A stretch of 64,000 nucleotides of DNA from an uncultured Candidatus Saccharibacteria bacterium (GTDB taxonomy: Bacteria > Patescibacteriota > Minisyncoccia > Phycocordibacterales > UBA5272). Below, piece after piece: positions 6,707 through 49,761 of this stretch; within the stretch, counting starts at the first letter, position 1; every line of letters starts with the position of its first letter. A program made the position numbers and the translations under genes. The notes beneath the pieces are model-generated. The model had not been told where the DNA came from. It did no database searches and saw only the letters and a program-made list of their open reading frames with translations. Location: the NCBI GenBank assembly GCA_964443675.1, contig CAYUDN010000001.1, forward strand, positions 10,862 through 74,861, read 5' to 3'.

Positions 6707-6729
6707 TTTGTCATTTGAAGCAAAAGATA

Positions 6730-7626: not shown

Positions 7627-7632
7627 AGTCGA

Positions 7633-10670: not shown

Positions 10671-10673
10671 CGT

Positions 10674-11459: not shown

Positions 11460-11463
11460 GTAT

Positions 11464-30386: not shown

Positions 30387-32072
30387 ATGAACATTGACAC
30401 TAACAACATAAAAGAAATACTCATCACTGGTAACTACATTAGTGAGGACGACGCAAAGAAAGCAGAAGATATTGCTAAGAAAAGTAATATTAGTTTTATT
30501 GAAGCACTTCGTCGTGATGGTATTGTAAATAGTGACATTGTTGGCCAGGCAACAGCAGAGAGCTTTGGTGTTCCTTATGCTGATCTTAACTCTGCTTCTA
30601 TTAGTGCAGACCAGGTGCGTAAGATTGACGAAGATACTGCTAAGAAACTACGAGTGGTTCTTTTTAACGAAGAGGAAGAAGGGTCAGTTACAGTAACTAC
30701 TGATAACCCAAAACAAGAAGGTCTTGCTAAGGAACTCGGAGCTATTTTTAAAGGAAAGAAAGTAGTGATTACCTATTCTTTGTCTGAAGACATTGATGCA
30801 TTTTTTATTTTTTATGAAAAACCACTTGATACAAGATTTTCAAAAATTATCGAAGAGTCAAGTGATCAAGTTGCTCCAGAAATTCTCGAAGAGATTTTTG
30901 ATGATGCGATTACCTACAAAGCTTCTGATGTGCACTTCGAACCACAAGCACGAGTAGTGGTAATTAGATTCCGTGTTGATGGAGTGCTTCATGAAGCAGG
31001 AAGATTACCAAAAGAATACTATGAGAATGTTCTTAATCGTATCAAAGTTAAGAGTGCTCTTCGTATTGATGAGCACTACGCGGCACAAGATGGTTCGCTT
31101 CATTACGATAGCAAACGAAATGGTGTGGCAGTTGATATGCGTACTTCCATTGTACCTATCGTGGAAGGGGAGAAGGTGGTACTTCGTATTCTTGGTTCGT
31201 ATGTACAAGGACTTACTTTTAATGATCTTGGGTTAACGCCTAAGAATCAAGAGCTTCTTCGAGAAGCTGCGGACAAACCTTTTGGTATGATCCTTGTCGT
31301 TGGACCAACAGGGTCTGGTAAGACCACGACACTGTATTCTTTGCTTAAGATGCTTAATACACCAGATACGAATATTACTACTATTGAAGATCCTGTGGAG
31401 TATAAGGTGCAAGGACTTAATCAAATACAGGTAACACAAGCTACAGGGTTAACGTTTGCGCGAGGACTTCGTGCAATTGTGCGACAAGACCCAGATATTA
31501 TTCTTGTGGGAGAGATTCGCGACTTAGAGACCGTAGAAATATCAGTGAATGCTGCGCTCACTGGACACTTACTTCTTTCTACTTTTCATGCTAATGATGC
31601 TGCAACTGCTATTCCTCGTCTTCTTGATATGGGGACAGAGCCATTTCTTCTTGCGTCAACAATGAATCTTATTATTGCACAACGTCTTGTGCGTAAAATT
31701 TGTGATCACTGTAAAGTAAGTAGCATCAAAAAACCTTCTGACTTCGACACTCCACAATTAAAAGGAGTTATGAAGTTTTTGCCATCCAAAAATCTTACTC
31801 TGTATGAAGGGAAGAAATGCGAGGCATGCGGATTCACTGGGTATAAAGGGAGAACTTCTATTTATGAAGTAATTAAGATCACACCAACTATGCAAGATCT
31901 TATAGTAAAGCGCCCCTCTGCTCAAGAAATTTGGAAACTTGCACGAAAGGAAGGTGCGTTGTCGGTGTTTGAAGATGGTCTCGAAAAAGTAAAGAACGGT
32001 CTTACGACTATTGATGAACTAGTGCGTATTGCACCACCACCAGATAAGCTTTTTGATGAAAAAGAAAAATAA
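30387..32072 (+). CDS. pilB: Type IV pilus assembly ATPase PilB (GspE family)
   Basis: Walker A 'VGPTGSGKTTT', 'ILVGEIRD' and a tetracysteine motif (CDHC...CEAC). Confidence 0.9.
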   Translation: MNIDTNNIKEILITGNYISEDDAKKAEDIAKKSNISFIEALRRDGIVNSDIVGQATAESFGVPYADLNSASISADQVRKIDEDTAKKLRVVLFNEEEEGSVTVTTDNPKQEGLAKELGAIFKGKKVVITYSLSEDIDAFFIFYEKPLDTRFSKIIEESSDQVAPEILEEIFDDAITYKASDVHFEPQARVVVIRFRVDGVLHEAGRLPKEYYENVLNRIKVKSALRIDEHYAAQDGSLHYDSKRNGVAVDMRTSIVPIVEGEKVVLRILGSYVQGLTFNDLGLTPKNQELLREAADKPFGMILVVGPTGSGKTTTLYSLLKMLNTPDTNITTIEDPVEYKVQGLNQIQVTQATGLTFARGLRAIVRQDPDIILVGEIRDLETVEISVNAALTGHLLLSTFHANDAATAIPRLLDMGTEPFLLASTMNLIIAQRLVRKICDHCKVSSIKKPSDFDTPQLKGVMKFLPSKNLTLYEGKKCEACGFTGYKGRTSIYEVIKITPTMQDLIVKRPSAQEIWKLARKEGALSVFEDGLEKVKNGLTTIDELVRIAPPPDKLFDEKEK

Positions 32073-32074
32073 AT

Positions 32075-33496
32075 ATGCCATCCGCTGCTCTTACAAAAAA
32101 GAATAGTGCTAAAGCAACCAAGAAAGTAAGTAAGACTGCCAAGGAAGTACAAGAAGAAAAGAAAGAAGAAAATGTAGCAACACCAAAGACGACACCTAAA
32201 GAAGTGGCGGTATTACAAAGCGTCACACAAGAACACAAAGAAAAAGAGAATGCACAAGAAAAGAAATCATTCTTTTCTTTTTTGAAACGCTACAAAGAGA
32301 CAAAAGAAAAGAAAGAGGATACAAAAGAACCTAACAACTCCCAAGGTGTCACTTCTTTAGAATCAAAAGTTTCTATTTCTGAGCCTGTGCGCGCAACTCC
32401 TGCACCTGAGAGAAAGATTGCAGCACGAGAACACCTATCGACATTTGGTCTTGGGAAAGAAAGAGATCAGTTCATTGAAAACTTAAGTATGCTTGTGCTT
32501 TCTGGAATGACTATTGTTGATGCGCTCACCTCTATCATTAAGCAGACAAAAAATGGAGGAATGAAAAAAATTCTTGAAAGAATGCTTCTTGAGATTGAGT
32601 CTGGATCGACGGTGTGGAAAGCTTTTCTTGCAACAGACCTTTTTAAGGGGTATACTATTTCGCTTATTCGTCTTGGGGAAGAATCTGGTAATTTTGCTGA
32701 GAACTTAAAAGTTGTCGCGCTTGAAGAGGAAAAGGATCGTGAGTTTAAGTCAAAGATTCGTTCAGCACTGATGTATCCAGTGTTTGTGCTTACTCTTACA
32801 GCGGTTGTCGGTATTGGTATTTCTTGGTTTATTCTCCCTAAACTTGCTAAGATTTTTGAGGATCTTAAGCTTACTCTCCCTTTTATTACACGAGTACTTA
32901 TTGGCTTTGGAATGTTTCTTAATAAGCACGGACTTATTGCTGTCCCACTTGGGGTTTTTGTGGTAGGGCTTATCGGGTATGTAGTATTTTTCTACAAAAA
33001 AACAAAATATGTAGGAGAAGTTATTATTTTTTCTATTCCAGGTATTAAGACACTTCTTATGGAGGTTGAGGTTGCTAGGTTCGGGTATCTTCTTGGAACA
33101 TTGCTTGATGCAGGGCTTCCTGTGACAAAAGCTATTGATTCTTTGGCGGGTGCGTCAGATGTGGTACGTTACAAGAGGTTTTATCTTCATTTACGGGAAT
33201 CAATCGAGCTTGGTAACTCTTTTGAAAAAAGTTTTGCGAGTTACAAAAAAATAAACGTACTTATCCCCGAACCAATACAGCAACTCATCGTATCAGGAGA
33301 AAAGTCAGGGAATTTGAACAAGACACTTGTGAAGGTTGGACAAGTACTTGAAGCAAAATCAGACACTACTACGAAAAACCTTACTATTATCATGGAGCCG
33401 ATACTTCTTGTGATTGTGTGGGCAGGTGTGGTATCAGTTGCGTTTGCGGTGATCTTGCCAATTTATAGTTTGGTTGGAGGACTTAATAATGTATAA
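32075..33496 (+). CDS. pilC: Type IV pilus platform protein PilC (GspF family) with about 110-aa Lys/Glu-rich N-terminal extension
   Basis: Two GspF repeats and three TM segments. Residues 1 to about 110 are low-complexity K/E-rich. Confidence 0.85.
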   Translation: MPSAALTKKNSAKATKKVSKTAKEVQEEKKEENVATPKTTPKEVAVLQSVTQEHKEKENAQEKKSFFSFLKRYKETKEKKEDTKEPNNSQGVTSLESKVSISEPVRATPAPERKIAAREHLSTFGLGKERDQFIENLSMLVLSGMTIVDALTSIIKQTKNGGMKKILERMLLEIESGSTVWKAFLATDLFKGYTISLIRLGEESGNFAENLKVVALEEEKDREFKSKIRSALMYPVFVLTLTAVVGIGISWFILPKLAKIFEDLKLTLPFITRVLIGFGMFLNKHGLIAVPLGVFVVGLIGYVVFFYKKTKYVGEVIIFSIPGIKTLLMEVEVARFGYLLGTLLDAGLPVTKAIDSLAGASDVVRYKRFYLHLRESIELGNSFEKSFASYKKINVLIPEPIQQLIVSGEKSGNLNKTLVKVGQVLEAKSDTTTKNLTIIMEPILLVIVWAGVVSVAFAVILPIYSLVGGLNNV

Positions 33497-33956
33497 CTTT
33501 TTTTTGAAAATTACTAAGAGTAGGTCAGTACGAGGGTTCACTCTTCAGGAGATTCTTCTTTCTGTTGCGCTTGTTGCTATTATCGCAGGCATGTCACTGC
33601 CAATGTATCGCACTTTTATTACAAGAGATGATTTAGATACAGCAGTTACTTCATTTGCATACGCCTCACGTCGGGCACAGGCACTTTCATTTTCTTCAGA
33701 TGGGGATACTGGATGGGGTGTACATGTGGGGGTTGGAGGTATACTACTCTTTAAGGGTGCAAGTTATGTCGGAAGAGATGCATCATTTGATGAGGTGACT
33801 TCTATACCAACTACAATTACCATCTCAGGACTTACTGATATTACTTTTGCAAAAGTAACTGGTGAGCCATACGCGACAGGAACAGTGAGCTTTACTTCAC
33901 AAGATAATGAAACACGCACTGCAACAATTAATGAAAAAGGAACAATTGACTACTAG
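33489..33956 (+). CDS. Prepilin-type pseudopilin / minor pilin
   Basis: 'RGFTLQEILLSVALVAIIAGMSLPMY' is a class III signal with G|FTLxE. The start ATG at 33489 overlaps the pilC stop by 8 nt. Confidence 0.7.
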   Translation: MYNFFLKITKSRSVRGFTLQEILLSVALVAIIAGMSLPMYRTFITRDDLDTAVTSFAYASRRAQALSFSSDGDTGWGVHVGVGGILLFKGASYVGRDASFDEVTSIPTTITISGLTDITFAKVTGEPYATGTVSFTSQDNETRTATINEKGTIDY

Positions 33957-36228
33957 ATTAAGGAGAGGGTTTTTTCTAGTAGAGATGCTTCTTACGAGTG
34001 CTATTTTTGTGCTATTTTTGGCTGGATTTTCTGGAGCACTGTACTATGGGCTTCAGTCGTCTTCTCTAGCCGGGGAAAGAGGGAGAGCAATGTCGTATGC
34101 AGAAGAGGGGCAGGAAGCAGTAAGAAGTATTCGTAATGCGAACTTCGCTAACCTGGTCGATGGAACGTATGGATTGTCGTACTCATCAGGAGCTTGGAGT
34201 CTTACAGGGAGTCAAGATACCTCTGGTATTTTTACTAGAACCGTTACCGTAGCGAGTGTGGGGTCTAACAAGAAAAATGTTACCGTTACTGTAACGTGGA
34301 GACAAACACCTTCACGAACAGGAAGTGTGAGTATGGAATCTCGTTTTACTAATTGGAAAACTATTCCTAATCTTGGTGTTGGTATTACTGTCAATGCAAT
34401 TGTGATTAATCATGGTCTCAATAAAGTCGCTACTGATTTTGCTCCTTATAAAGTGGGAACTACTACAGTAACTTTGGCGACATCAACACTTTTTGCTCCT
34501 GGAACATACACGGTTACCGCCGTAACAGATCCAGATTACACAACAACATTTAGTGGTGACTGTAATGCAAGTGGTCAGATCACTGTTGCTACTGGAAGTG
34601 CTAAGTTATGTACTATTACTCATGAGGAGAAGTTGGCCTATGTCACTCTTACTAATACTGTGATTAATCACGGAGGTAATAAAACCGTTACGGACTTTGC
34701 TCCTTACAAAGTAGGTTCGACAACAGTGATACTTAATACTCCTACACCAATTAATTCAGGAAGCTATCAGATTACAGAAGCAACAAGCTCTAACTACACT
34801 CTTACGTTTACAGGGGATTGTTTTACTAACGGAACTATTACTCTTACTTCTAATTCAACAAAGTCATGTGCCCTTACTAATGAAGAAAATATACAAGGTG
34901 GAGGAGGAAGTCAGTCTCTTGCAGGTATTACTATTTATGGTGATGGGTCTAATGTGCCAAAGTATCGTACCTTTAATCAGAATACTAATCAATTTAGTGC
35001 CGAGACAGGAACCTTTACTGCAACCGTTGGCCCAACATGGATTATTCGTGCTTCTCCAACACAACATATTGCACTTGCTGGGTATTACGACAACTCAGCA
35101 ACGTTAACCATTATGTGTTTTGATGGAACTAACTGGACTAAAGAGTTCGCTGCGCAGTCCGGAGGTGTTGGTAATAGGCATCGTTTTGATATTGCATTCG
35201 AGAAGACTTCTGGTAAAGCTATGGTGGTATTCAGTAAAGGAAGTTATGTGTTTGGTGACTTAGGCTACAGAACTAAAACGGGGGGCACAGGGTGTGGTCA
35301 AGGGTGGTCAAATGAAAGTATTCTTGCTCCGACAAGAACTTCTAACGATATTATGTATGTAAAACTTGCACAAGATCGTCGGATTGGGTCTAATCTTTTG
35401 GCGCTTACGTGGGTGGATACAAGTGAGGATATTTCTGCGCGTATATGGGACGGAAGTTCGTGGATGAATGAACCAACCGCAGTTACAGATAATAATCTTG
35501 AGCGAATTACCTCCTCCCATGATATAGAGAATATGGATATAGAGTATGAGTCTCTTTCTGGGGATCTTATGTTGGTGTGGTCTAATGCACTTGGTAACAA
35601 TGGAACAAACGGAGTTCGTTATCGAACATGTACAGGCGGTATTGCGGCGTGTACATGGAATCCGGTAACAACACCACCTTCTTTCCTTGATGATGCAACA
35701 AGCCTAGATATTTCCGCTAATCCAGCTTCTGATGAGATAGTATTTGCATCTATCGGAAACGCAGGCGGTGACCTTCAACTTGGTTATTGGAGTGGTAACG
35801 CATGGACAGATACACCAAATGCAGACACTTCATGCACGGTACCGTACACCGCTTCTAAGTTAGTAACAACGGGATGGCTTATTCTTGGAAGCACTACTCG
35901 TTCTGTTGTTGTGTATTCTGATCTTAATTCAACCAATATTAACTGGTATACCGGTAACGGTGGAGTGTTTACACGTCAATCAGACTTTACTCCTTCAACA
36001 CCGATAGCAAGTCCAAGAGGGTATATGGATATCTATATGAACCCAAGAGATTACGCACAGCTAATGTATTACACTTCGGATAACAATAGTGACTTTTTTG
36101 CGAAACGTCTCATGATGACAGGTACCTCTACACTCACCTGGACTAATTCAGACGGCGGCCCTCCTCTTGAAACAACTCTCCCACAAATCATCTCGTCTCC
36201 TTTTTCGTTTACTTTTTGGCAACAGTAA
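33907..36228 (+). CDS. Large prepilin-type protein (773 aa), candidate tip adhesin with tandem about 85-aa repeats
   Basis: N-terminal 'RRGFFLVEMLLTSAIFVLFLAGF'. Two tandem repeats 'VINHG.NK..TDFAPYKVG.TTV.L.T...GDC...G.IT...S.K.C..T.EE' lie at about nt 34400-34890. The start is ambiguous between 33907 and 33931; both overlap the previous gene. Confidence 0.7.
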   Translation: MKHALQQLMKKEQLTTRLRRGFFLVEMLLTSAIFVLFLAGFSGALYYGLQSSSLAGERGRAMSYAEEGQEAVRSIRNANFANLVDGTYGLSYSSGAWSLTGSQDTSGIFTRTVTVASVGSNKKNVTVTVTWRQTPSRTGSVSMESRFTNWKTIPNLGVGITVNAIVINHGLNKVATDFAPYKVGTTTVTLATSTLFAPGTYTVTAVTDPDYTTTFSGDCNASGQITVATGSAKLCTITHEEKLAYVTLTNTVINHGGNKTVTDFAPYKVGSTTVILNTPTPINSGSYQITEATSSNYTLTFTGDCFTNGTITLTSNSTKSCALTNEENIQGGGGSQSLAGITIYGDGSNVPKYRTFNQNTNQFSAETGTFTATVGPTWIIRASPTQHIALAGYYDNSATLTIMCFDGTNWTKEFAAQSGGVGNRHRFDIAFEKTSGKAMVVFSKGSYVFGDLGYRTKTGGTGCGQGWSNESILAPTRTSNDIMYVKLAQDRRIGSNLLALTWVDTSEDISARIWDGSSWMNEPTAVTDNNLERITSSHDIENMDIEYESLSGDLMLVWSNALGNNGTNGVRYRTCTGGIAACTWNPVTTPPSFLDDATSLDISANPASDEIVFASIGNAGGDLQLGYWSGNAWTDTPNADTSCTVPYTASKLVTTGWLILGSTTRSVVVYSDLNSTNINWYTGNGGVFTRQSDFTPSTPIASPRGYMDIYMNPRDYAQLMYYTSDNNSDFFAKRLMMTGTSTLTWTNSDGGPPLETTLPQIISSPFSFTFWQQ

Positions 36229-36232
36229 TTCT

Positions 36233-36748
36233 ATGCAACACTTTTCTTCACAAAAAGGATTTACTTTAGTTGAAATGGTGCTATATGTTGCTATTTGCTC
36301 ATTGTTTTTGGTTTCCAGTTCTTACTTTTTGTCATTTCTTATGGAGTCCAAAGTTCGTTCTCAGGTGATGAATGAAGTAAATCAACAAGGGGTACAAATA
36401 ACCACACTGCTGACAAGAACTATTCGTGGTGCACGAAGCATCGATGTGCCTCTGGTCGGCACTGCCTCTACTACGCTTTCCTTGACCGTGGTAGATGGTA
36501 CTCGTAGCCCAACGGTATTTACTTCCAGTTCTTCTGTGTTTACAATTCGAGAAGGGGGTAAGAGTTCTGTAGCCCTTACAAATCACCGTATTGTGGTAAC
36601 CGATCTTCTTTTCCAAAATGTATCAGCATCTTCTTCGCTTGAAAAAATAGTACGCTTTTCTTTTGTGCTTCGATACGCAACCACAAGTAGTAGTAATGCT
36701 ACGTATGAATATTCTAAAACATTTTCTGGAAGCGCAATTGTGCGTTAA
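36233..36748 (+). CDS. Prepilin-type pseudopilin
   Basis: 'MQHFSSQKGFTLVEMVLYVAICSLFLV'. The ATG at 36233 directly follows the previous stop. Confidence 0.7.
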   Translation: MQHFSSQKGFTLVEMVLYVAICSLFLVSSSYFLSFLMESKVRSQVMNEVNQQGVQITTLLTRTIRGARSIDVPLVGTASTTLSLTVVDGTRSPTVFTSSSSVFTIREGGKSSVALTNHRIVVTDLLFQNVSASSSLEKIVRFSFVLRYATTSSSNATYEYSKTFSGSAIVR

Positions 36749-36757
36749 TATACTAAT

Positions 36758-37171
36758 ATGAATCTACGTCCTCATGTACAACAACTTACTCGTGGTTACA
36801 TTGCCATGCTCTCCGTTATCCTCATTGCTGCAATAGGTACTGTGGTAATGATGTCTGTCGTTGCTTCTGGTGTTGATTCTGGTAAAACTAATCTTTCTCT
36901 TCAGCTTTCTGGCACAGCAAGGATGATGGCAACTTCTTGTGTTGAAGAAGCGCTTCAAGAGATCATTGATACCGGCACTACTTCTAAAAGGGGCATGTTG
37001 ACACTTGGCTCTAATTCATGTGATTACACAATCAGCACCTCTTCTGGGCAAACAATTCTTGTTAAAGCAACAGGCACAGCAATGACGGTAGTCTCAAAAA
37101 TCCTTGTAATTATAGCTTCTACCACCCCCTCTCTTACGTTATCCTCATGGCAAGAGGTTTCTGACTTCTAA
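36758..37171 (+). CDS. Minor pilin-like protein (PilX-like), tentative
   Basis: N-terminal 'QQLTRGYIAMLSVILIAAIGTVVMM' hydrophobic segment resembling the PilX/minor-pilin leader. No canonical GFxxxE motif. Confidence 0.45.
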   Translation: MNLRPHVQQLTRGYIAMLSVILIAAIGTVVMMSVVASGVDSGKTNLSLQLSGTARMMATSCVEEALQEIIDTGTTSKRGMLTLGSNSCDYTISTSSGQTILVKATGTAMTVVSKILVIIASTTPSLTLSSWQEVSDF

Positions 37172-37339
37172 AGCCTTTTTTGTCTGTTATACTTATATAC
37201 ATAGGTTAGTAAAGGTTATTCCTGTTGTCCGACGGGACAGCAAAATCTTTACAGAGGTTTTTCTTTTTTTAAGAAAAGCTCTATTTAAAAAGTTTAATTA
37301 GTTTCGAATACATTTTTGTGTATTCATAAAATATATTTT

Positions 37340-37795
37340 ATGAAAAACTTTACTCGTAACCAGAAAGGATTTACTCTTATTGAAATCCTTCTCGTGGTTG
37401 CTGCTATTGCTATTCTTGCCGGTATTGTGATCGTTGCTATTAACCCAGCTAAGCAGCTTGGTGATACTCGTAACGCAGACCGTCGTTCCGCAGTTAACAC
37501 TATTCTTAACGCGGTTACTCAGTACGCAATTGATAACAACGGTGTTCTTCCAACTGGTATCTCAACTACCACTACAGAAATCTGTTCTTCATCTGTTGCA
37601 ACAACTTCATGTACAGGTCTTGTAGATCTTTCAGTGCTTACTCTTAATGGTAAGTATCTTGGGGCTGTTCCAGATGAACCTCAGAAGACTAATGCAAATG
37701 GCGCAGGGTATATGATCTCTAAGAATTCTAATGGTCGTGTTACTGTAGCTGCACAGTTCGCAGAGCAGGGGGCAACTATCTCTGTAACCCGCTAA
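37340..37795 (+). CDS. pilA: Type IV major pilin (PilA-like)
   Basis: 'MKNFTRNQKGFTLIEILLVVAAIAILAGIV' is a canonical class III signal and N-methyl-Phe pilin N-terminus. The start is moved to ATG 37340. Confidence 0.75.
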   Translation: MKNFTRNQKGFTLIEILLVVAAIAILAGIVIVAINPAKQLGDTRNADRRSAVNTILNAVTQYAIDNNGVLPTGISTTTTEICSSSVATTSCTGLVDLSVLTLNGKYLGAVPDEPQKTNANGAGYMISKNSNGRVTVAAQFAEQGATISVTR

Positions 37796-37799
37796 TTGT

Positions 37800-38576
37800 A
37801 TGACGCTCTGGTTCCTGCGTAAGGAAGAGAAAAAAGGGAAGAATGATTTTATTTCTATTGCTTCCCACGAACTCCGTTCACCTCTTTCTATTATCAAGTG
37901 GTATACCGAAATATTGCTTGATGGTGATGCAGGGCCACTTACCGAGGATCAGCGTAAGTATCTTACGCTTATTGAATCAAGTAATCAAAGAGCAATAGAC
38001 CTTGTAAGGTCATTACTTAACGTATCCAGGCTCGACCTGGATACGTTTGGTATTTCACCAGAGGTTGTTAGCCTTTCTTCTTGTATCGAGGAAGCGATTT
38101 CTTCTATACAAGAAACCGCTTCACAACATTCTGTCGAAATTGTTACTAAAAGCGTTACTGATAGCACGCTCTCGCTTGATCGTCACTTAACAGTGATGAT
38201 GCTTAGACAGCTTCTTCTTAATGCGGTACTGTACTCTTCTTCTGGTGGCAAGGTTACTCTTGTTGCTCAAGAAGAAAAGAAACATGACAACGAACATCTT
38301 CTTAGTGACAGTGTGGTAATTACTGTTACCGATCAAGGGATGGGGATACCTCTTTCTGAACAGGAACATATATTCGAAAAAATGTTCCGTGCGAAGAATG
38401 TGAAGGATTCTGAGATTCCTGGATCCGGCTTTGCATTGTATGTGATTAAGGAATTACTTACACGTATTGGCGGAGCTATTTGGTTTTCTTCTAGAGAGGG
38501 TGAAGGTTCTACTTTTTCTATTGCTATTCCTCGTACAGGGATGCCAAAGAAAGTAGGAAGAACGACTCTCGATTAA
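37800..38576 (+). CDS. Cytoplasmic sensor histidine kinase (HisKA+HATPase_c only, no TM or sensor domain)
   Basis: H-box 'ISIASHELRSPLSIIKWYTE' and G-boxes 'DQGMGIP' and 'GSGFALYVIK'. It is only 258 aa and starts 5 nt after the pilA stop. Confidence 0.75.
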   Translation: MTLWFLRKEEKKGKNDFISIASHELRSPLSIIKWYTEILLDGDAGPLTEDQRKYLTLIESSNQRAIDLVRSLLNVSRLDLDTFGISPEVVSLSSCIEEAISSIQETASQHSVEIVTKSVTDSTLSLDRHLTVMMLRQLLLNAVLYSSSGGKVTLVAQEEKKHDNEHLLSDSVVITVTDQGMGIPLSEQEHIFEKMFRAKNVKDSEIPGSGFALYVIKELLTRIGGAIWFSSREGEGSTFSIAIPRTGMPKKVGRTTLD

Positions 38577-38609
38577 GAAGGAAGAAACAAGAGAGAAGAT
38601 TCAATGGTC

Positions 38610-38658
38610 AAGAAAAGATGACGACACCTACGGTGTCGTCATCTTTCTTTTGTTTTTC
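38610..38658. terminator. Bidirectional intrinsic terminator (14-bp stem aagatgacgacacc-tac-ggtgtcgtcatctt)
   Basis: Lies between the convergent histidine-kinase and HTH-murA genes, with T-runs on both sides. Confidence 0.6.
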
Positions 38659-38674
38659 AATTTGCGCTGTATTG

Positions 38675-40189
38675 CTATACTCCTCGCACCACAGTGATGC
38701 GCGCACCGATACTGTTGAGGCGTTCTGCGATATCAGCGTAGCCTCGTTTGATGGAATACACATTACGAAGCATTGAGGTTCCTTCTGCTGCAAGCATGGC
38801 AATAAGAATGATTGCAGTAGGACGAAGTGCTGGAGGGGAGACGATTTGAGCGCCACGAAGTTTTTTTACACCATTTATAAGAGCTCGGTGAGGGTCGAGT
38901 AGTTTAATTTCAGCACCAAGACGATTAAGTTCTGTAAAGTAGATCGCGCGATTTTCCCATGTCCAATCATGAATAAGTGTTTGCCCTTCTGCAAAACAGG
39001 TAATCGGTACGAAGAAGGGGAGATTGTCATTGTTAATACCAGGGAATGGTTGTGTATGTATCTTGTCATGAGGTGCAACAAGAGAAGAAGGAAGTACGGT
39101 AATATCGACGAGTTTGGTTTTGGCATTCTTCGAAAGATATTCTTTTGAAGTTTTGTATACAAGTCCCATACGTTTCAATTTTTCGAGTTCAAGGGTGAGG
39201 AATTCAACAGGACATCTTTCTACGGTGAGTTTTGATTTGGTTACGATACCAGCTGCAATAAAGAACATACTCTCGATAGGGTCTTCACTGTTGTAGTGCT
39301 CAACATTACAGGTAATTTCTTTTTTACCGTGGATGGTAAGAGTGGTGGTTCCGATACCCTCGATCTCTACTCCAAAGGATTGAAGTAAAAAACAGACGTC
39401 TTGTACTTGGTAATTAGGTGGAGCAAACTTAATAATCGTTGTTCCTTCGATACGAGACGCAGCAATGAGTGCAGTAATCGCACCAGTGTCAGAGGACTCA
39501 TAAAGAGGGATGATACCAGGGTGGAGTTTTTTGTGGGAGATTTCATAGTAGTGTTCTTTGGTTACGACCGAAGCACCAAGGTATTCAAGTGCGTACTTAT
39601 GGGAAGCAACTGTTCTTTCTCCCATTTTGCAACCACCAGAGTGAGGGAGGGTGCATGATTCTGCGAAGTGGATGAATGCACCAGCAAAGGTGAAGGAGCG
39701 TATCTTTTCTGCAACACTTTTGTTCATTTTGGAAAAGGTGAGCTTCTTTGGTGGAGTAATTTCAAGTGCCGTATCGTTGTGGGTCCATTTGATTTTGACG
39801 CCAAGACTCTCTAAGAGTTCTTTGTAACGGTATACTTCTTCTATATGAGGAATGTCACGAAGCACGGTAGTGCCAGCGTTGACAAGAGAAGCAACCATCA
39901 TATTGATTGCACCGTTTTTGGAAGTGTTTGTTACAATCTTACCGTGTAGTTTGTGTCCACCTTCTACCTTAAAATCAATCGTATCTTGAATACTCACGAT
40001 GTTATGCTTAAGCACACTACTCATTTTGAGGAGTTGTTCTATGGTGACATTTTGGTTACCGGACTCAATGCGAGCCACTGCAGATTGTGAGGTTTTTAGC
40101 TTTTTTGCGAACTCTTCTTGAGTTAATCCTTGTTCTTCACGTAACTTTTTAATAAAAATACCTATTTTTTGCTGATCATTTGGTTCCAT
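38675..40189 (-). CDS. murA: XRE-family HTH domain fused to UDP-N-acetylglucosamine 1-carboxyvinyltransferase (MurA)
   Basis: Residues 1-65 carry 'IGIFIKKLREEQGLTQEEFAKKLKTSQSAVARIESG', an XRE helix-turn-helix. The remainder is MurA: 'SKNGAINMMVASL', a Cys loop 'HSGGCKMGERTVASH', and C-terminal 'IKRGYADIAERLNSIGARI'. It is one uninterrupted 504-aa frame. Confidence 0.75.
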   Translation of the reverse strand: MEPNDQQKIGIFIKKLREEQGLTQEEFAKKLKTSQSAVARIESGNQNVTIEQLLKMSSVLKHNIVSIQDTIDFKVEGGHKLHGKIVTNTSKNGAINMMVASLVNAGTTVLRDIPHIEEVYRYKELLESLGVKIKWTHNDTALEITPPKKLTFSKMNKSVAEKIRSFTFAGAFIHFAESCTLPHSGGCKMGERTVASHKYALEYLGASVVTKEHYYEISHKKLHPGIIPLYESSDTGAITALIAASRIEGTTIIKFAPPNYQVQDVCFLLQSFGVEIEGIGTTTLTIHGKKEITCNVEHYNSEDPIESMFFIAAGIVTKSKLTVERCPVEFLTLELEKLKRMGLVYKTSKEYLSKNAKTKLVDITVLPSSLVAPHDKIHTQPFPGINNDNLPFFVPITCFAEGQTLIHDWTWENRAIYFTELNRLGAEIKLLDPHRALINGVKKLRGAQIVSPPALRPTAIILIAMLAAEGTSMLRNVYSIKRGYADIAERLNSIGARITVVRGV

Positions 40190-40277
40190 ATCTTAATAGT
40201 ATATCACATGTGATATAAAGTACGGTGGAAAACCTGGTATGAGTATGGTAGTAGTATAGTAGACTTTAGGAGAGATC

Positions 40278-40427
40278 ATGAAAGTTCGAACTCATTCCAA
40301 GCGACGTAAGTGGTTTTTGTTTGCAACTACTCCTTCACGGGCACGGTTTTATCTGAACTTCCTGTATAAGCCAGCTCATTTCACTGTCGATCAGATAAGA
40401 AAAGCAGTTCGTTCTGCTACTTGATGA
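40278..40427 (+). CDS. Small basic hypothetical protein (49 aa)
   Basis: A strong SD (ttAGGAGAGatcATG) precedes MKVRTHSKRRKWFLFATTPSRARFYLNFLYKPAHFTVDQIRKAVRSAT. It is below the ORF-track size cutoff. Confidence 0.4.
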
Positions 40428-40476
40428 ACTTATTTGTATACCTTGTACACTTCACTTTTTGTGAGGTGTTCTTGTA

Positions 40477-41739
40477 TTACTGTATCAGTGATTCTATAGT
40501 AAAGAGAGATATAGCCCCCATAAGAACAGTGGTAAGAATAACGAGCATGTTACTTACTCGAGAGTTTACTTTGTCGCCAAGAATTTTTTTGTTATTCGCT
40601 ACAAAAAGAATAATGACAAGCAGTGGTGCTGCTAGTACGCCGTTTACTGCTGCGGCATAATAGAGCATAAGTACAGGGTCAATATGTAAAAAGTTAAGTA
40701 ATACTCCCATCAAAATTGCGATAGTGATCACCAAATAAAAGCGAACTGCTTGAGTGAATGTTTTGTTAAGTCCAAGAGGGAATGAGAACATTTCTGCAAC
40801 TGAGTAGGCAACAGATCCAGCGAGCACAGGGATTGCAAGTAGACCTGTTCCTAATATTCCAAAAGAAAAGAGGTATACCGCAAAGTCTCCAGCAAGAGGG
40901 CGGAGCGATTCTGCAAATTGCGCAGCAGAAGTAATCGCGGTACCTGAGCCACCAATAGTTCCATGAGCTGTGATAATGATAAAGAAAGCAATAAGATTAG
41001 AAAGGAACATTCCAATCACCGTGTCGATGCGCATTTGAACAAGGTCATTCTTGGTAATAGCCGGAGTTCCTTTACCAAAAGCAGTAAGTTTTTTGTGTTC
41101 GATTTCTTCCTCTACTTCTTCATCTGCTTGCCAGAAAAAAAGATATGGGGAGATGGTGGTTCCTAAAAATGCTGTAATATTAAGGAGATATTCTTTGTTC
41201 CATTCAAAATGGGGTGCAAATGTAGCAAAAGTAATGGCTTGCCAGTCTTGGGTAATAAAAAATGCAGTAACGATATATGCAAGTACTGTTGCAGCAAAAT
41301 ATTTCAAAATTTTTGCATATTTATGGTAAGGGATATAGATAACTGAAAATATAGTAAAGAGGGTGATAATTATTATCCCCACCCCAGAAGGAACAGAAGG
41401 AGTCATTAAGGTAATAGCTTGACCCATTGCACCAAGGTCAGCTCCGATGTTGATTACATTTGCAAGAGTAAGGAGTGTTACCGCGATAACGAGTACATAA
41501 TGGGGATAGTGACCTTTGATGACACCAGCAATTCCTTTTCCAGTAACAATACCAATGCGAGCACACATTTCTTGTACTGCGACCATTAATGGAAAGGAGT
41601 AGAGTGTCATCCATAACTGTGAAAGCCCAAATATAGCGCCTGTTTGTGCGTAGGTTGCAATTCCTGAAGGGTCATCATCAGCAATACCTGTAACAATTCC
41701 TGGTCCAAGCGACTTTTTGATTTTTTTAAAAAGTGTCAT
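40477..41739 (-). CDS. mntH: NRAMP-family divalent metal (Mn2+/Fe2+) transporter
   Basis: 'GPGIVTGIADDDPSGIATYAQTGAIFGLSQLW...MVAVQEMCARIGIVTGKG' is the NRAMP consensus. The start is chosen at MTLFKK (41739); the track start at 41913 is far upstream. Confidence 0.8.
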   Translation of the reverse strand: MTLFKKIKKSLGPGIVTGIADDDPSGIATYAQTGAIFGLSQLWMTLYSFPLMVAVQEMCARIGIVTGKGIAGVIKGHYPHYVLVIAVTLLTLANVINIGADLGAMGQAITLMTPSVPSGVGIIIITLFTIFSVIYIPYHKYAKILKYFAATVLAYIVTAFFITQDWQAITFATFAPHFEWNKEYLLNITAFLGTTISPYLFFWQADEEVEEEIEHKKLTAFGKGTPAITKNDLVQMRIDTVIGMFLSNLIAFFIIITAHGTIGGSGTAITSAAQFAESLRPLAGDFAVYLFSFGILGTGLLAIPVLAGSVAYSVAEMFSFPLGLNKTFTQAVRFYLVITIAILMGVLLNFLHIDPVLMLYYAAAVNGVLAAPLLVIILFVANNKKILGDKVNSRVSNMLVILTTVLMGAISLFTIESLIQ

Positions 41740-41799
41740 ATGGGAAAAGTATAGCATGAAGAAGGTTGACGGCTTCTTGGTAGAGAGTGGAAAGTTGCG

Positions 41800-42168
41800 A
41801 TGAGAAAAGTGTATACTTTCTGTATGAAAACAACACCCTTTCTTGAATATGTGCTTTATGATATATTCGGTGAACAAGAGCCAATCACTGCAAGGTATAT
41901 GATGGGCGCACACATGCTTTACTATGAAGGGAAGCCTTTTGCGATTGTTGAAAATGATGAACTCTACTTCAAAGGATCAAAAGAGGTAGCAGGGTGGTAT
42001 CTATATCGTGGAAGCAAACAGTTCACCTACACTAAGGAGGGAAAGGAGGCACATCTTTATTACTTTTTTGTTCCACCTGAAGTGTATGAAGAAAGAGAGA
42101 GTCGTGAGGAGTGGTTAGAGGTAGCACTTAGTGTTTCAAAGAAGAAACAAGTAAAAAGCAATAAGTAA
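41800..42168 (+). CDS. TfoX N-terminal-domain-like protein (tentative)
   Basis: 'ARYMMGAHMLYYEGKPFAIVENDELYFKGSKE' resembles the TfoX_N (Sxy) domain pattern. Weak call. Confidence 0.35.
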   Translation: MRKVYTFCMKTTPFLEYVLYDIFGEQEPITARYMMGAHMLYYEGKPFAIVENDELYFKGSKEVAGWYLYRGSKQFTYTKEGKEAHLYYFFVPPEVYEERESREEWLEVALSVSKKKQVKSNK

Positions 42169-46799: not shown

Positions 46800-48095
46800 C
46801 TATTTCTTTCTTCTTAGGAATGGTGGAAGTGCCTCCCAATCATCATCGTCATCTTCATCTTCAAATTTAAAAACAGGTTTTTTTGTAGCTGGAAGAGGTT
46901 GAGTTTTTTTCACATCTTCTATCACTTTAGTTTCTCCTTCTTGAAGTTCGTGATCGATACGTTTGTCTTCTTTTGTTTCCGTGACTGATTCACGAACGGT
47001 TTCTGTTTTTTCTGTGCGAGGTTCTGGTTTTGTATGTTCTTCTCTATAGTGAACTTTTGGTGTAGGAATTTCTTCTTCCTCTTCCTTTTCAATGCGTGAA
47101 GGTGAAGAAAGGGAAGCGCCTGCTTTTAGTTGAGTGTAGCCACTTGGAAAGCCTGTTGCGATAACAGTAACTTTGATTTCATCTTTTTTGAGTGAGGAGT
47201 CTGTAGCGATACCAAAAATAATTTTTGCATCTTTGTCCACTGATTCAGTGATGATCTTCGCAGCTTCTTGTACTTCAAACATTCCAAGATCTTCTGCACC
47301 GTAAATTGCAAAGAGTACTCCTTTTGCTCCATGAATAGATACATCAAGAAGAGGGGAATTAACTGCAGATGTCGCCGCTTCTCTTGCGCGATTTTCTCCC
47401 ATACCACGACCGACACCCATAAGTGCCGTTCCTGAGTCTTTGAGGATTCTCTTGATATCTGCGAAGTCGAGGTTAATTGTTCCTGCGGTTCGGATAATAT
47501 CCGAAATACCTTCAACTGCTTGCTTGAGTACTTCGTCACACATTTCAAATGCTTGCTTAACGGTGGTATTCTTATCAATCACTGATAGAAGTCTATCGTT
47601 AGGAATAACGATGAGTGCGTCGACTTCCTTCTCAAGCTCTTCGAGACCTTTTTCTGCGAGCTTCATGCGAGATGCTCCTTCGAAGAAGAATGGCTTTGTT
47701 ACTACACCGATTGTAAGTATTCCTTCATTCTTTGCAATCGACGCAACAATAGGAGCAGCGCCTGTGCCTGTACCTCCACCCATTCCTCCCGCGATAAACA
47801 CCATGTCAGCCCCTTTGATGACATCTTGAATTTCTTCGCGAGTTTCTTCTGCGGAACGCTTGCCTACTTCTGGATCCATTCCTGCTCCTAGACCTTTGGT
47901 GAGATTTTTTCCAATGTGGATTTTTTTCTCTGCAAGTGAATGATGAAGATCTTGTGTGTCGGTATTCATTGCAACGAACTCAACTCCTTGCAACTTGGAG
48001 TTGATCATGTGATTAAGTGCACCTTTTCCTGATCCTCCAATTCCGATTACTTTAATGCGTGCGAAACTTTCGATTTCTGGGTTTACTTTTGCCAT
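46800..48095 (-). CDS. ftsZ: Cell division GTPase FtsZ
   Basis: 'GIGGSGKGALNHM' and tubulin signature 'FIAGGMGGGTGTGAAP'. It has a long acidic C-terminal linker. Confidence 0.9.
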   Translation of the reverse strand: MAKVNPEIESFARIKVIGIGGSGKGALNHMINSKLQGVEFVAMNTDTQDLHHSLAEKKIHIGKNLTKGLGAGMDPEVGKRSAEETREEIQDVIKGADMVFIAGGMGGGTGTGAAPIVASIAKNEGILTIGVVTKPFFFEGASRMKLAEKGLEELEKEVDALIVIPNDRLLSVIDKNTTVKQAFEMCDEVLKQAVEGISDIIRTAGTINLDFADIKRILKDSGTALMGVGRGMGENRAREAATSAVNSPLLDVSIHGAKGVLFAIYGAEDLGMFEVQEAAKIITESVDKDAKIIFGIATDSSLKKDEIKVTVIATGFPSGYTQLKAGASLSSPSRIEKEEEEEIPTPKVHYREEHTKPEPRTEKTETVRESVTETKEDKRIDHELQEGETKVIEDVKKTQPLPATKKPVFKFEDEDDDDDWEALPPFLRRKK

Positions 48096-48203
48096 AAAGG
48101 GTGTAAGGGGTTACCTGGTTATTAGTACTAGTACTATACCAACTTGGAGACATTTTTGCAAAGGCAATAAAAGTGACTAGAAATAGGAAAAAAGTATTGA
48201 AAA

Positions 48204-49352
48204 TTAAGGCAAAAAACGAACTACCATCTTTTTGACATGAGCAAAAAAAGATGTTACAAGTTCTTTAAGAACATCTTTTTCTGTATCAAATGGTGCAAGG
48301 AAAGTAAGGCCGTAACTTCTTGCCCATCCACTATCACGTAACACATCACCGGTGATGCGTACTAGTTCTCCAGATGCAATCTTTACAGGAAGACGTAGTT
48401 CGTTACGAAATACAAACTCAAGACGTGGTACAAGTGAAGTAGATCCACAGACTACGATCCCTGCTGGAAGAAGTTCTGCACGTTGTATACGAGTGAGTTC
48501 TTTTGTAATTTTTTGGCAAAGGTCTTCTAGTCTTGCTTCGATGATTTCTTCCACCCTTCTTTTTGAGTAAGGAGACAGTGTGCGCCCACATTTTATTTCT
48601 TCTGCTTCTTCGAGGGTGACTTTCATTCCAAGTGCGATATCTTTGGTAATGTCTTCTCCTCCAACAGGGATAGTAGAGACAAGAAGTGGTGTATTTTTTT
48701 CATACACAAGAAGAGAGGTTACCGCTTGTCCAATGTTAACAAGAGCAACGCCTGCAACTTTTTGTTTTTTGGTGAGAAGGGGAATGCTTTCTGCAATTGG
48801 GCCAGCAACAATATCAGTAACACGTACACCGGCCTGGTCGAGGGTTTTTCGGAGTGTGTTCATACACTGTAGTGGGTAGGTCACAAAGAGAGTTCTTGCT
48901 TCAAGTTTGTTGCCACGTACTCCTACGACTGTGCCTTGCACTTTTCCTCCATCAACTTTGTAATCAATAGGGATTGCATGAATAATAGATTTGTTACGAA
49001 CATCAGGAATAGTTCGATTACCGTCTTTGATTGCATTTTCTATATCAAGATCAGTAACAGAAGCATCACCTCTTGAAACCTGTGCATATCCAACAGTATG
49101 ATTCGATGAGAGGCCGATCGCTCCAATAGAGATAAGCGTATGAAGTGTTCCACACCCAGATTCTTCCTCAAGAGAAAGAATAGCATCGGTAATAGCATGA
49201 GCAACTTCCTTTTCATCGGTAATGGTGCCGCGATCCATCCCGTCAAGCGATTTTTTGTAGGTAGCTACTACGACAGGATATTTAGAATCTTCATGTCGAA
49301 TTGCACCGACCGCACGCAAGTTGCCGGATCCTAAGTCTATTCCCACAATCAT
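48204..49352 (-). CDS. ftsA: Cell division protein FtsA (actin-like ATPase)
   Basis: 'MIVGIDLGSGNLRAVG' phosphate-1 motif and an FtsA domain pattern. The start at 49352 is chosen to avoid a 62-nt overlap with ybeY; 49424 (with an AAAGG SD) is an alternative. Confidence 0.8.
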   Translation of the reverse strand: MIVGIDLGSGNLRAVGAIRHEDSKYPVVVATYKKSLDGMDRGTITDEKEVAHAITDAILSLEEESGCGTLHTLISIGAIGLSSNHTVGYAQVSRGDASVTDLDIENAIKDGNRTIPDVRNKSIIHAIPIDYKVDGGKVQGTVVGVRGNKLEARTLFVTYPLQCMNTLRKTLDQAGVRVTDIVAGPIAESIPLLTKKQKVAGVALVNIGQAVTSLLVYEKNTPLLVSTIPVGGEDITKDIALGMKVTLEEAEEIKCGRTLSPYSKRRVEEIIEARLEDLCQKITKELTRIQRAELLPAGIVVCGSTSLVPRLEFVFRNELRLPVKIASGELVRITGDVLRDSGWARSYGLTFLAPFDTEKDVLKELVTSFFAHVKKMVVRFLP

Positions 49353-49362
49353 GTCTTTTCTG

Positions 49363-49761
49363 TTATTTGCCACGGAAAAATTGTTTATGATATTTTGTTT
49401 CCAATGATTCCATTGTACTCCCATGATCGTAACCTTTCAAATGGAGACATCCATGAATAAAAAGAAGATAAAGGAAAGAAAGGTAGGACATGTTGAAATT
49501 CTTTGCGTCGTTGCGTGCAGTTGCAAGAGAAATATAAATTTCTCCTTCTTTTTCGGAAAGAGGAAAAGAAAGAATATTGGTCGGATAGTCTTTTCCTCTG
49601 TAGGCGTTGTTTCGTTCTTTAGACTCTTGAGGTGTACAGAAAATAACAGTCAAGTTGTATCTTGTGCCTAAGATTTTTTCTTTGATAGAAATAAAAGGAA
49701 TTTCTGGAAGTTTCCCATTTTTTCGAATAACGGTAAGGTTGTGTGTTTCGGAGAGTGTCAT
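49363..49761 (-). CDS. ybeY: Endoribonuclease YbeY (rRNA maturation factor)
   Basis: Zinc-binding 'FIHGCLHLKGYDH' (H..H.....H) motif. The alternative start at 49794 would lie inside the hairpin at 49795-49822. Confidence 0.7.
   Translation of the reverse strand: MTLSETHNLTVIRKNGKLPEIPFISIKEKILGTRYNLTVIFCTPQESKERNNAYRGKDYPTNILSFPLSEKEGEIYISLATARNDAKNFNMSYLSFLYLLFIHGCLHLKGYDHGSTMESLETKYHKQFFRGK

Follow-up and report, generated by a model that had tools for sequence, protein, structure and literature searches.

The 64-kb window, by which is meant the whole stretch of DNA analysed here, carries an open reading frame in which an XRE-type helix-turn-helix (HTH) domain runs directly into MurA. The locus raises the question of whether such a fusion genuinely exists and, if it does, what a DNA-binding domain would do on an enzyme of peptidoglycan synthesis. 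A preliminary description had reported one uninterrupted HTH-MurA frame of 504 aa, with an HTH of 65 aa and a junction at about nt 39990-40000, and had suggested an autoregulatory function while allowing for mis-assembly.

The frame itself was confirmed, as the sequence and the list of open reading frames give an ATG start, no internal stop codon and 504 aa, and Pfam and NCBIfam models match along it (Table 1). The length given for the HTH and the position of the junction were right to within a few residues, and the peptide quoted from the HTH, QGLTQEEFAKKLKTSQSAVARIESG, corresponds to aa 20-44 of the fusion protein. HTH_3 and EPSP_synthase, the pair of Pfam domains named for checking, are both above threshold on the same chain, the former at aa 13-60 (E 2.3e-14, 53.6 bits against a cut-off of 23) and the latter (PF00275) at aa 75-491, spanning model positions 1-417 of 417 (E 2.3e-39). 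The AF2 model of the single chain, built from alignment A3, which is shallower than the locus-derived alignment A2, has a pLDDT of 89.5. It places four confident helices between residues 5 and 60 (5-19, 24-30, 35-42 and 50-60), and pLDDT is low across linker residues 61-70. In a Foldseek comparison, the predicted fold gave a target-normalised TM score of 0.92 to C. difficile MurA (6q03) and 0.90 to 1uae, and the MurA domain aligns end to end with the PDB sequences of solved MurAs.

Table 1. Features of the HTH-MurA locus, with positions in the 64-kb window.
Feature	Position	Strand	Basis and details
HTH-MurA fusion CDS	38675..40189	-	504 aa + stop codon; ORF list, sequence, Pfam/NCBIfam matches
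XRE/Cro-C1-type HTH domain, aa 9-62	40004..40165	-	HTH_3 match, AF2 helices
Putative recognition helix SQSAVARIE, aa 34-42	40064..40090	-	residue invariance across fused representatives
Linker, aa 63-72 (10 residues), from HTH to MurA beta-strand 1	39974..40003	-	low pLDDT, near-constant length
MurA (UDP-GlcNAc enolpyruvyl transferase) domain, aa 73-504	38678..39973	-	EPSP_synthase, NF006873, alignment to solved MurAs, Foldseek
Codon of catalytic Cys187 (E. coli Cys115 equivalent), loop SGGCKMGERTV	39629..39631	-	alignment to PDB MurA sequences
Extended -10, TGaTATACT	40198..40206	-	read from sequence; in the right half of the palindrome and just past it
Perfect 18-bp palindrome TATATCACATGTGATATA, candidate operator	40200..40217		10 nt upstream of ATG; 9+9 nt perfect arms
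G+C-rich hairpin, probably a shared terminator	38614..38646		terminator scan: 15 pairs, 3-nt loop on + strand

The HTH-MurA fusion is real and old. At least 594 Patescibacteria/CPR species genomes and hundreds of independent assemblies have the junction, and this recurrence excludes the mis-assembly considered in the preliminary description. At least 120 protein clusters from NCBI, JGI, ENA and Logan, with 78-100% identity, share the ~504-aa architecture, fused representatives were found down to 30% identity, and cultured Nonomuraea also have the fusion. An assembly or frameshift artefact joining a small regulator gene to murA, which draws on the prior plausibility of such errors in metagenome assemblies and on nothing else, has a negligible probability. 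Against it stand the presence of a protein 100% identical to the window fusion (P0001) in both NCBI and Logan assemblies, the Logan run SRR12487045 being independent, the repetition of the frame in hundreds of assemblies from the four sources and in isolate genomes, and a linker of nearly constant length between fused families. The architecture is unusual for bacteria generally, as had been stated, yet it is common and widespread across Patescibacteria when counted as species genomes with the junction, so that the window protein is an ordinary member of a large family. NCBI names for members vary between 'MurA' and 'helix-turn-helix domain-containing protein', and given this inconsistency the family is of relevance to annotation. 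No description of an HTH-MurA fusion was found in the literature, where apparent matches were reference-list artefacts and MurA was discussed without the fusion.

As judged by profile scores, the MurA domain of the window protein is a divergent MurA subfamily: NF006873 is above its cut-off (318.9 bits against 297), whereas the murA equivalog TIGR01072 (297.2 against 392.7) and NF009470 (220.5 against 552) are below theirs. Alignment to solved MurAs identified equivalents of K22, R91, C115, R120, D305, R331, R371 and R397. Across 75 fused orthologues (47-87% identity), none of these eight catalytic or substrate-binding residues varies apart from a single C-to-D change, the catalytic C being kept in 74 of the 75 and replaced by D in the remaining one. 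The MurA domain is thus predicted, from residue conservation and the modelled fold, to be catalytically competent. A tblastn search of the 64-kb window revealed no second murA, and none lies within 10 kb on either side of the fused gene in 81 loci. In the complete genome of the cultured Southlakia epibionticum, the 1524-bp gene SEML1_0687, with PF01381 at 14-65 and PF00275 at 79-494, is the only carboxyvinyltransferase/EPSP row, and it was essential by Tn-seq at 3 of 3 time points (PMC10633639, Tables S1 and S2). Taking the 64-kb window and the 10 kb to either side in relatives as the area searched, the fused protein is most likely the organism's only MurA.

The mean identity over 120 homologues is 81% for the HTH and 84% for the MurA domain. 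Residues S34, Q35, S36, A37, R40 and E42 are invariant in nine fused representatives with 30-48% overall identity, as well as in a 46-sequence alignment, and the recognition helix TSQSAVARIE is near-invariant among fused proteins. By this pattern of substitution the HTH domain is under selection. Other classes of HTH were considered and rejected. The Pfam model HTH_25 (RodZ-type) gave a weak, sub-threshold match (17.1 bits against a cut-off of 24.6); MurA follows the HTH directly and the membrane segment of a RodZ-type cytoskeletal protein is absent. All models for XRE antitoxins of type II systems (HipB, HigA, PezA and MqsA) scored below their cut-offs, with TIGR03070 at 47.8 against 71.65, and there is no adjacent toxin gene. 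Scores for a Wmk-like HTH were likewise below the family cut-offs. No second HTH paralogue was detected by tblastn in the 64-kb window.

A candidate target of the HTH is the palindrome TATATCACATGTGATATA, which has a single match in the window at up to 3 mismatches (0.04 expected). No further operator copies were found in the window, whether up to 3 mismatches were allowed or the N4 pattern was sought with 2 at most, and the window has no other mur genes on which an operator could be sought. Among 80 related loci, 66 have the palindrome ahead of the fused gene with no more than 2 mismatches, against about 0.2 expected from the background rate; 64 of these were counted within 200 nt upstream, and two were added after correction of the start codon. 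Of the 42 perfect copies, every one is upstream of a fused gene, with none elsewhere in 1.2 Mb. The information content is 0.9-2.0 bits per position within the palindrome and 0.0-0.6 (mostly below 0.4) in the flanks, dropping sharply at both edges, and the left half-site matches the right in conservation, at 1.4-2.0 bits. About 11 Saccharibacteria loci retain just a degenerate left half-site. The consensus of the candidate operator is TATATCA-N4-TGATATA (18 bp), with half-site centres 11 bp apart, a spacing that suits a dimer on one face of the DNA.

This candidate operator is conserved from Paceibacteria to Saccharibacteria, and Nonomuraea, at 69% GC, retains the related palindrome ATCTCA-N4-TGAGAT. 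The commonest gap between palindrome and ATG across the loci is 8-11 nt, and in some loci the site lies 30-150 nt upstream of the ATG. Some close relatives (L082 and L083) lack both the HTH and the palindrome, and the regulation would therefore be dispensable in some lineages. Weak sites with 2 mismatches elsewhere in the related loci, which neighbour genes for ValRS, SHMT, thioredoxin reductase and others, were taken as chance occurrences because the neighbouring genes are unrelated.

The palindrome overlaps a putative extended -10 element. The ATG lies 8 nt downstream of this element with no Shine-Dalgarno sequence between them, and the mRNA is therefore probably leaderless or nearly so, with a putative start of transcription. 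A scan for the two-hexamer sigma-70 consensus reported no promoter at the fused gene, missing the one read by eye because there is no match to a -35 hexamer. Conservation of the right half-site could in part reflect its -10 role. At the other end of the gene, whose neighbours encode an Nramp transporter and a histidine kinase, the hairpin is followed on the minus strand by TTTTCTT and separates the convergent fusion and histidine-kinase genes. No known RNA elements were found in 38400-40700. A divergent ORF of 48 aa (40278-40424) has no Pfam match and is not conserved in relatives.

Sites of the same kind also occur at other mur genes. In a sister branch of the family, the catalytic loop has been lost and the MurA-like body retained. 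The loop-less gene is the first of an operon that also contains ddl and/or a Mur ligase gene, and it is divergent to a canonical murA-murB or murD-to-murB operon, with the same palindrome in the shared intergenic region. In one further locus (L010), a second copy of the candidate operator, the only other site at up to 1 mismatch, is directly upstream of murC; murC in L018 and L053 has no operator site. From the position of these sites we infer that the regulatory role may extend to the mur pathway, and the retention of a MurA-like body in a catalytically dead branch is consistent with a sensing or dimerising role.

Taken together, these comparisons suggest that the fused protein probably has two functions, as enzyme and as autorepressor, in the manner of BirA and PutA. 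Its C-terminal 432 residues would act as MurA in the first committed step of peptidoglycan synthesis, and the XRE-type HTH, carried on a short linker, would bind TATATCA-N4-TGATATA, presumably as a dimer. The binding site would overlap the extended -10 and the transcription start of the protein's own monocistronic, probably leaderless gene, so that the bound HTH would occlude RNA polymerase and MurA would act as a negative autoregulator, repressing its own production. Dimerisation, ligand sensing or both probably come from the MurA body. Candidate signals are the open and closed states of MurA with UDP-GlcNAc, PEP or UDP-MurNAc, in which case the degree of repression could follow precursor flux, much as BirA responds to biotinoyl-AMP. 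That the protein binds DNA, that the regulation is repression, that the mRNA is leaderless and that a ligand exerts control are what we infer here. A point against the model is that MurA enzymes are generally described as monomers, whereas a palindrome would need a dimer. The autoregulatory reading of the preliminary description thus has strong comparative support in the conserved palindrome over the gene's own promoter and the near-invariant recognition helix. Its labels 'DNA-tethered' and 'moonlighting' suit the protein less well than 'bifunctional enzyme-repressor', since the enzyme keeps its catalytic residues and since, in the cultured relative, the fused gene is essential and there is no other MurA.

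Other readings assign the two domains differently. The protein could be purely a regulator, its MurA-like domain sensing a ligand or dimerising while a separate canonical MurA encoded elsewhere in the genome performs catalysis. This would match the sister branch, in which a canonical murA stands next to the loop-less gene, and it would be in keeping with a score under the murA equivalog cut-off and with the extent of the second-murA search (64-kb window and 10 kb to either side in relatives). However, invariance of eight residues in 75 orthologues across deep divergence is unexpected for a sensor, the true pseudoenzyme branch having lost its catalytic residues quickly, and no second MurA came to light in the window or around the 81 fused genes. 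With the fused gene also the sole EPSP-family gene of S. epibionticum, and essential there, a pure regulator is very unlikely. We judge it just as improbable that the HTH does not bind DNA and either mediates protein contacts, as in RodZ, or is a remnant, in which case the palindrome would belong to the promoter or be bound by some other factor. The weak HTH_25 match and the doubling of the right half-site as extended -10 agree with such a role, but a promoter element would not account for a left half-site as conserved as the right, and the site is specific to the fused gene rather than to promoters generally, as the absence of perfect copies elsewhere in 1.2 Mb indicates. Moreover, the palindrome goes with the gene that carries the HTH, both in an actinomycete of 69% GC and in the pseudoenzyme branch, and is missing from the HTH-less relatives; no other HTH paralogue was found in the window, and the residues of the recognition helix that canonically read DNA do not vary.

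Slightly less improbable, though still unlikely, is a palindrome-binding HTH that works as an activator, or one that serves chiefly other targets, in place of autorepression. The sign of the regulation is read from operator position only, the site of the pseudoenzyme branch lies in a divergent region and could serve either or both operons, and the sites 30-150 nt upstream of the ATG would also suit an activator. At most loci, however, the site covers the -10 and stops 8-11 nt short of the ATG, leaving no room for an activator-type upstream position, and repression is typical of XRE-family regulators that overlap the core promoter. As regards other targets, the murC site in L010 is the single one found at up to 1 mismatch. 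Autorepression by the enzyme is the reading followed here. A bolder form of it, which we hold tentatively and consider rather doubtful, would make the MurA body an allosteric sensor of peptidoglycan-precursor flux, with the closed or 'dormant' state (occupied by UDP-MurNAc and the PEP adduct, or else by UDP-GlcNAc) driving dimerisation and operator binding in a BirA-like feedback circuit found throughout Patescibacteria; in one branch, the protein would have turned into a pseudoenzyme devoted to transcriptional control of the mur operon. If so, the first committed enzyme of the wall would read the output of its pathway and set its own transcription, and in some lineages also that of murC or of the whole mur operon.

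The conserved 18-bp palindrome at the promoter of the fused gene, recognised by sequence comparison, is new here, and its near-invariance indicates that in these ultra-small bacteria the enzyme may switch off its own gene. In no bacterium is the transcriptional control of peptidoglycan precursor synthesis well understood, and Patescibacteria/CPR are a very large, mostly uncultured group in which gene regulation is almost unstudied. An essential enzyme with its own DNA-binding domain and a conserved 18-bp site represents a concrete candidate regulator-operator pair, testable in cultivable and transformable Saccharibacteria (SEML1_0687) and in cultured Nonomuraea. MurA would thereby join the short list of enzyme-repressor fusions, and the dead sister branch within the mur operon offers a natural example of the passage from enzyme to transcription factor.

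Among known systems, BirA, the biotin protein ligase and bio operon repressor with a winged HTH and corepressor-driven dimerisation, is the template for the mechanism proposed by analogy. Both proteins have an N-terminal HTH fused to a biosynthetic or ligase enzyme and a palindromic operator over the promoter of their own pathway, and in BirA the enzyme domain supplies dimerisation and corepressor sensing. Unlike the winged HTH of BirA, that of the fusion is of the XRE type, the enzyme fold and the pathway are unrelated, and corepressor-driven dimerisation is experimental for BirA and proposed for HTH-MurA. The 'trigger enzymes' PutA, NadR and archaeal RbkR, the last being described as a bifunctional riboflavin kinase/regulator (PMC5397151), also combine a DNA-binding domain and a catalytic domain of the regulated pathway in a single polypeptide. 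As enzyme-repressors require, HTH-MurA appears from its sequence to have a DNA-binding domain and intact catalytic residues on one chain. PutA, NadR and RbkR differ in having other DNA-binding folds (RHH in PutA) and other pathways, none of them involving peptidoglycan or the EPSP-synthase fold.

With stand-alone MurA (that of E. coli and E. cloacae, and Gram-positive MurAA/MurAB), the fusion shares the fold, the catalytic Cys loop and the Lys, Asp and Arg residues. It is nonetheless only 24-28% identical to canonical MurA in structural alignments and forms a separate clade, with an insertion of ~11 residues and PGINxDN in place of PGFPTD. No match to the HTH region came from any of the 33 solved MurA-family sequences, all of which align at or beyond query residue 73. 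The known control of MurA is post-translational, through ClpCP/ReoM in Firmicutes and feedback by UDP-MurNAc, and to our knowledge does not operate via a fused DNA-binding domain. The XRE/Cro-C1 repressors (434/P22, SinR and HipB-type) resemble the fusion in HTH_3, an ~18-bp palindrome, half-sites one helical turn apart and overlap with their own promoter, but they are small or carry oligomerisation or peptidase domains, where HTH-MurA carries a housekeeping enzyme. The XRE-HTH and shikimate-kinase fusion NF006015 ('anaerobic benzoate catabolism transcriptional regulator') likewise joins an N-terminal XRE HTH to an enzyme-like domain; its model matches the window HTH weakly (26 bits against a cut-off of 204), and its C-terminal domain is different.

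The XRE-type HTH-MurA fusion was correctly located and described, down to its peptide, in the preliminary description, as judged by ORF reading and by Pfam and NCBIfam matches: HTH_3 and EPSP_synthase were both found in one 504-aa frame. The C-terminal part passes the NCBIfam MurA subfamily model NF006873 (318.9 versus a cut-off of 297 bits) and scores below the cut-off of TIGR01072, the stricter murA equivalog (297 versus 392.7 bits). In an AlphaFold2 model (pLDDT 89.5, pTM 0.82), an HTH of four helices is followed by a low-confidence linker and the MurA body.

Features of the window, domains of its HTH-MurA protein and related loci (L-numbers; HTH-MurA*, fused protein without the catalytic Cys loop, encoded by a 'dead' gene)
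Feature	Position	Strand	Details
Fusion gene	38675-40189	minus	one uninterrupted ORF, 504 aa, ATG start
HTH_3 (XRE-type) domain	aa 13-60	minus	Pfam, E 2.3e-14
HTH-MurA linker	aa 63-72		~10 residues
EPSP_synthase domain, complete	aa 75-491	minus	Pfam, model positions 1-417 of 417
Candidate operator, perfect 18-bp palindrome	40200-40217		TATATCACATGTGATATA; 10 nt upstream of ATG
DnaA-box-like word	40224-40232	minus	TTTTCCACC
Type IV pilus cluster	30387-37795		
PilB	30387-32072		type IV pilus
PilC	32075-33496		type IV pilus
Histidine-kinase gene	37800-38576		convergent with fusion gene
Shared hairpin	38614-38646		between fusion and histidine-kinase genes
48-aa basic ORF	40278-40424	plus	divergent
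Nramp transporter gene	40477-41913	minus	upstream of fusion gene
TfoX-domain ORF	41800-42168	plus	
ftsA-ftsZ pair	46800-49424		
L084	8598-14295		dead gene first in operon with ddl and Mur ligase; divergent to canonical murA-murB operon
L089	5574-10791		dead gene then Mur ligase; divergent to murA-murB
L090	1174-11106		dead gene then Mur ligase; divergent to murD, two Mur ligases, murA, murB
L087	7388-11467		murB, relA/spoT, HTH-MurA*, co-directional; AATATCAAATATGATATA upstream, operator-like
L088 (Nonomuraea sp. NEAU-A123 fused locus)	10001-12605		JAHFZZ010000002.1; 69% G+C

Mis-assembly, raised in the preliminary description as the alternative origin of the fusion, was not borne out. An identical protein is present in an independent Logan assembly (run SRR12487045), and in a search space of 5.8 billion proteins the matches listed include at least 120 clusters of 78-100% identity from NCBI, JGI, ENA and Logan; an assembly artefact was therefore rejected. 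About 110 of the 120 listed clusters are 504-507 aa long, nearly all contain both Pfam domains, and their sources label them Paceibacterota, Parcubacteria or Nomurabacteria. Fused proteins reach down to 30% identity in a search against representatives clustered at 50% identity. The same fusion was found in related genomes when GTDB, at one genome per species, was scanned with the HTH/MurA junction: at least 600 junction stretches were recovered, 594 of which were confirmed. By record title, the best 80 loci include Paceibacterota, Nomura-, Zambryski-, Doudna-, Uhr-, Lipton-, Taylor- and Gracilibacteria, Minisyncoccia and Saccharibacteria. The family is thus very large and extends across the Patescibacteria, and the HTH-MurA of the window is an ordinary member of it.

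The MurA half of the protein looks active. Aligned to solved MurAs, it has equivalents of K22, R91, C115, R120, D305, R331, R371 and R397 (E. coli numbering), with the C115 equivalent in SGGCKMGERTV. Among 75 full-length fused orthologues (47-87% identical) that the 80 loci supplied, none of the eight positions varies, apart from one Cys-to-Asp replacement, a natural active-site variant. The modelled MurA body superposes on the MurAs of C. difficile, E. coli and others with target-normalised TM scores of 0.90-0.92. No second MurA-like gene was found in the 64-kb window or within 10 kb on either side of 81 related loci. In the complete genome of a cultured relative, Southlakia epibionticum ML1, SEML1_0687 (1524 bp) is the sole 'carboxyvinyltransferase' row of Table S1 and the sole 'EPSP' row of Table S2 (PMC10633639). 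As it carries PF01381 at residues 14-65 and PF00275 at 79-494, it is the fused form. By Tn-seq HMM it is essential at all three time points, with 48 insertions in input DNA and 1, 1 and 0 after growth (PMC10633639).

The HTH half is, as judged by conservation, under strong constraint. Mean identity across the 120 listed close homologues is 81% for the HTH versus 84% for the enzyme. In nine fused representatives with an overall identity of only 30-48%, 18 positions of the HTH region are invariant, including T33, S34, Q35, S36, A37, R40, E42, G44, Q46 and N47 of the putative recognition helix and following turn, and linker length differs by at most 1-2 residues.

The window has no match to the candidate operator other than this one when up to three mismatches are allowed (0.04 expected). 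Its right half and the next two bases read TGaTATACT, an extended -10 element. Between this element and the ATG lie 8 nt without a Shine-Dalgarno sequence, so the mRNA is probably leaderless; a promoter scan of the window gave no call at this site. In the 200 nt preceding the fused gene, TATATCA-N4-TGATATA was found at up to two mismatches in 66 of 80 related loci (64, plus two after start-codon correction; three further loci had no upstream DNA), where the background rate predicts ~0.2 sites. The 42 perfect copies all lie upstream of a fused gene, with none elsewhere in 1.2 Mb. Loci aligned on the palindrome (consensus TATATCATATATGATATA) carry 0.9-2.0 bits at all 18 positions versus 0.0-0.6, mostly below 0.4, in both flanks. 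The gap to the ATG is most often 8-11 nt, and half-site centres are 11 bp apart. Conservation of the right half-site may be due in part to its -10 role. A -35-like TTGCAA or TTGACA adjoins the palindrome in other loci. An enriched DnaA-box-like word (TTATCCACA, ATATCCACA) occurs at variable spacing upstream of the operator, 13-35 nt away in 13 related loci; ATCCAC is present there in 9 of 71 loci versus 0.67 expected.

In a rough neighbour-joining tree, all fused proteins and a few unfused ones form one clade apart from canonical MurAs. Two close MurA-domain relatives, P0121 (61% identity; L082:548-1912) and P0123 (52% identity; L083:295-1626), are truly unfused and lack the HTH, and their upstream DNA has no site within three mismatches of the palindrome. 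Some lineages nested among the fused ones have thus lost the HTH or never gained it. In L082, a tRNA gene lies upstream of the unfused MurA. Proteins with the helix SQSAVARIE have near-perfect sites (mean 0.36 mismatches, n=53), and those with SQSAVNRIE, mainly from Saccharibacteria, have more degenerate left half-sites (mean 1.9 mismatches, n=24), a correlation confounded by phylogeny. The absence of a site at the HTH-less relatives and the match of helix type to site fit direct recognition by the HTH.

At the base of the fused clade in this rough tree lies the dead branch, in which the Cys loop and R91 are lost, as are R120 and R371 in most members, and the HTH is kept (P0131, P0133, P0134 and P0286-P0290; more distantly P0135, P0140, P0198 and P0200). 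On three independent contigs (L084, L089 and L090), the operator occupies the short intergenic region shared with the divergent genes: TATATCATATATGATATT in L084, with TTGACA in front of it and the ATG 11 nt further on; a perfect TATATCATACATGATATA in L090, 8 nt before the ATG; and a near-palindromic variant in L089. The dead-branch gene looks like an enzyme turned dedicated mur-operon regulator. In another related locus, L010, an operator copy with one mismatch (TATCTCATATATGATATA, 7923-7940) lies directly upstream of murC (6625-7920, minus strand) and is the only other site with at most one mismatch in the 1.2-Mb set; the operator is absent at murC of L018 and L053.

Outside the Patescibacteria, the fused representative P0122 (48% identical, catalytic residues intact) stands for a 246-member cluster from cultured Nonomuraea species, whose members are named MurA or 'helix-turn-helix domain-containing protein' by NCBI. 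In strain NEAU-A123, an AT-rich, operator-like palindrome, ATCTCA-TATG-TGAGAT, is located 12 nt before the ATG. A phage-type integrase gene and an XRE gene immediately downstream suggest that the fused gene is on a mobile island and that horizontal transfer took place between Patescibacteria and Actinomycetota. Cultured Nonomuraea offer a tractable organism for testing HTH-MurA.

In the window (40% G+C), the fusion gene is monocistronic. No other mur genes were found in the 64 kb, and no Rfam family matched in 38400-40700. The divergent 48-aa ORF has a good AGGAG-type ribosome-binding site; with no Pfam match and no conservation in related loci, it is probably either strain-specific or no gene at all. 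In the Nramp ORF, the Pfam domain begins at aa 85, after a long N-terminal extension that runs into the TfoX-domain ORF; translation probably begins at an internal Met. The pilus cluster, in which several pilin-like ORFs carry N-methylation motifs and one 773-aa ORF has no confident family, is, with ftsA-ftsZ, typical Patescibacteria content. TfoX, an ABC exporter and a glycan-synthesis cluster are also encoded.

The best-supported reading is that HTH-MurA would be bifunctional, both enzyme and autorepressor. Through its XRE HTH, a MurA that is active and probably the sole one would bind a palindromic operator that overlaps the -10 and start site of its own gene, so that the first committed step of wall synthesis would be under negative autoregulation. 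Regulation would extend to murC or a mur operon in some lineages, and in one branch, with a canonical MurA in place, the enzyme would have decayed to serve as a dedicated regulator. Retention of the whole MurA-like body in the dead branch argues that this body may supply dimerisation, ligand sensing or both, which motivates the speculation that the UDP-sugar/PEP state could control DNA binding in a BirA-like manner. MurA is usually described as a monomer.

Full-text literature searches found no description or discussion of the HTH-MurA fusion. The architecture is visible without comment in annotation tables, e.g. Table S2 of PMC10633639, the main text of which does not mention MurA. Enzyme-repressor fusions are known as a kind of system from BirA, PutA, NadR and RbkR. 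HTH-MurA differs from these in its subject, and what appear to be new are MurA and peptidoglycan synthesis as the target of such a fusion, the Patescibacteria-wide operator and the derived pseudoenzyme regulator.
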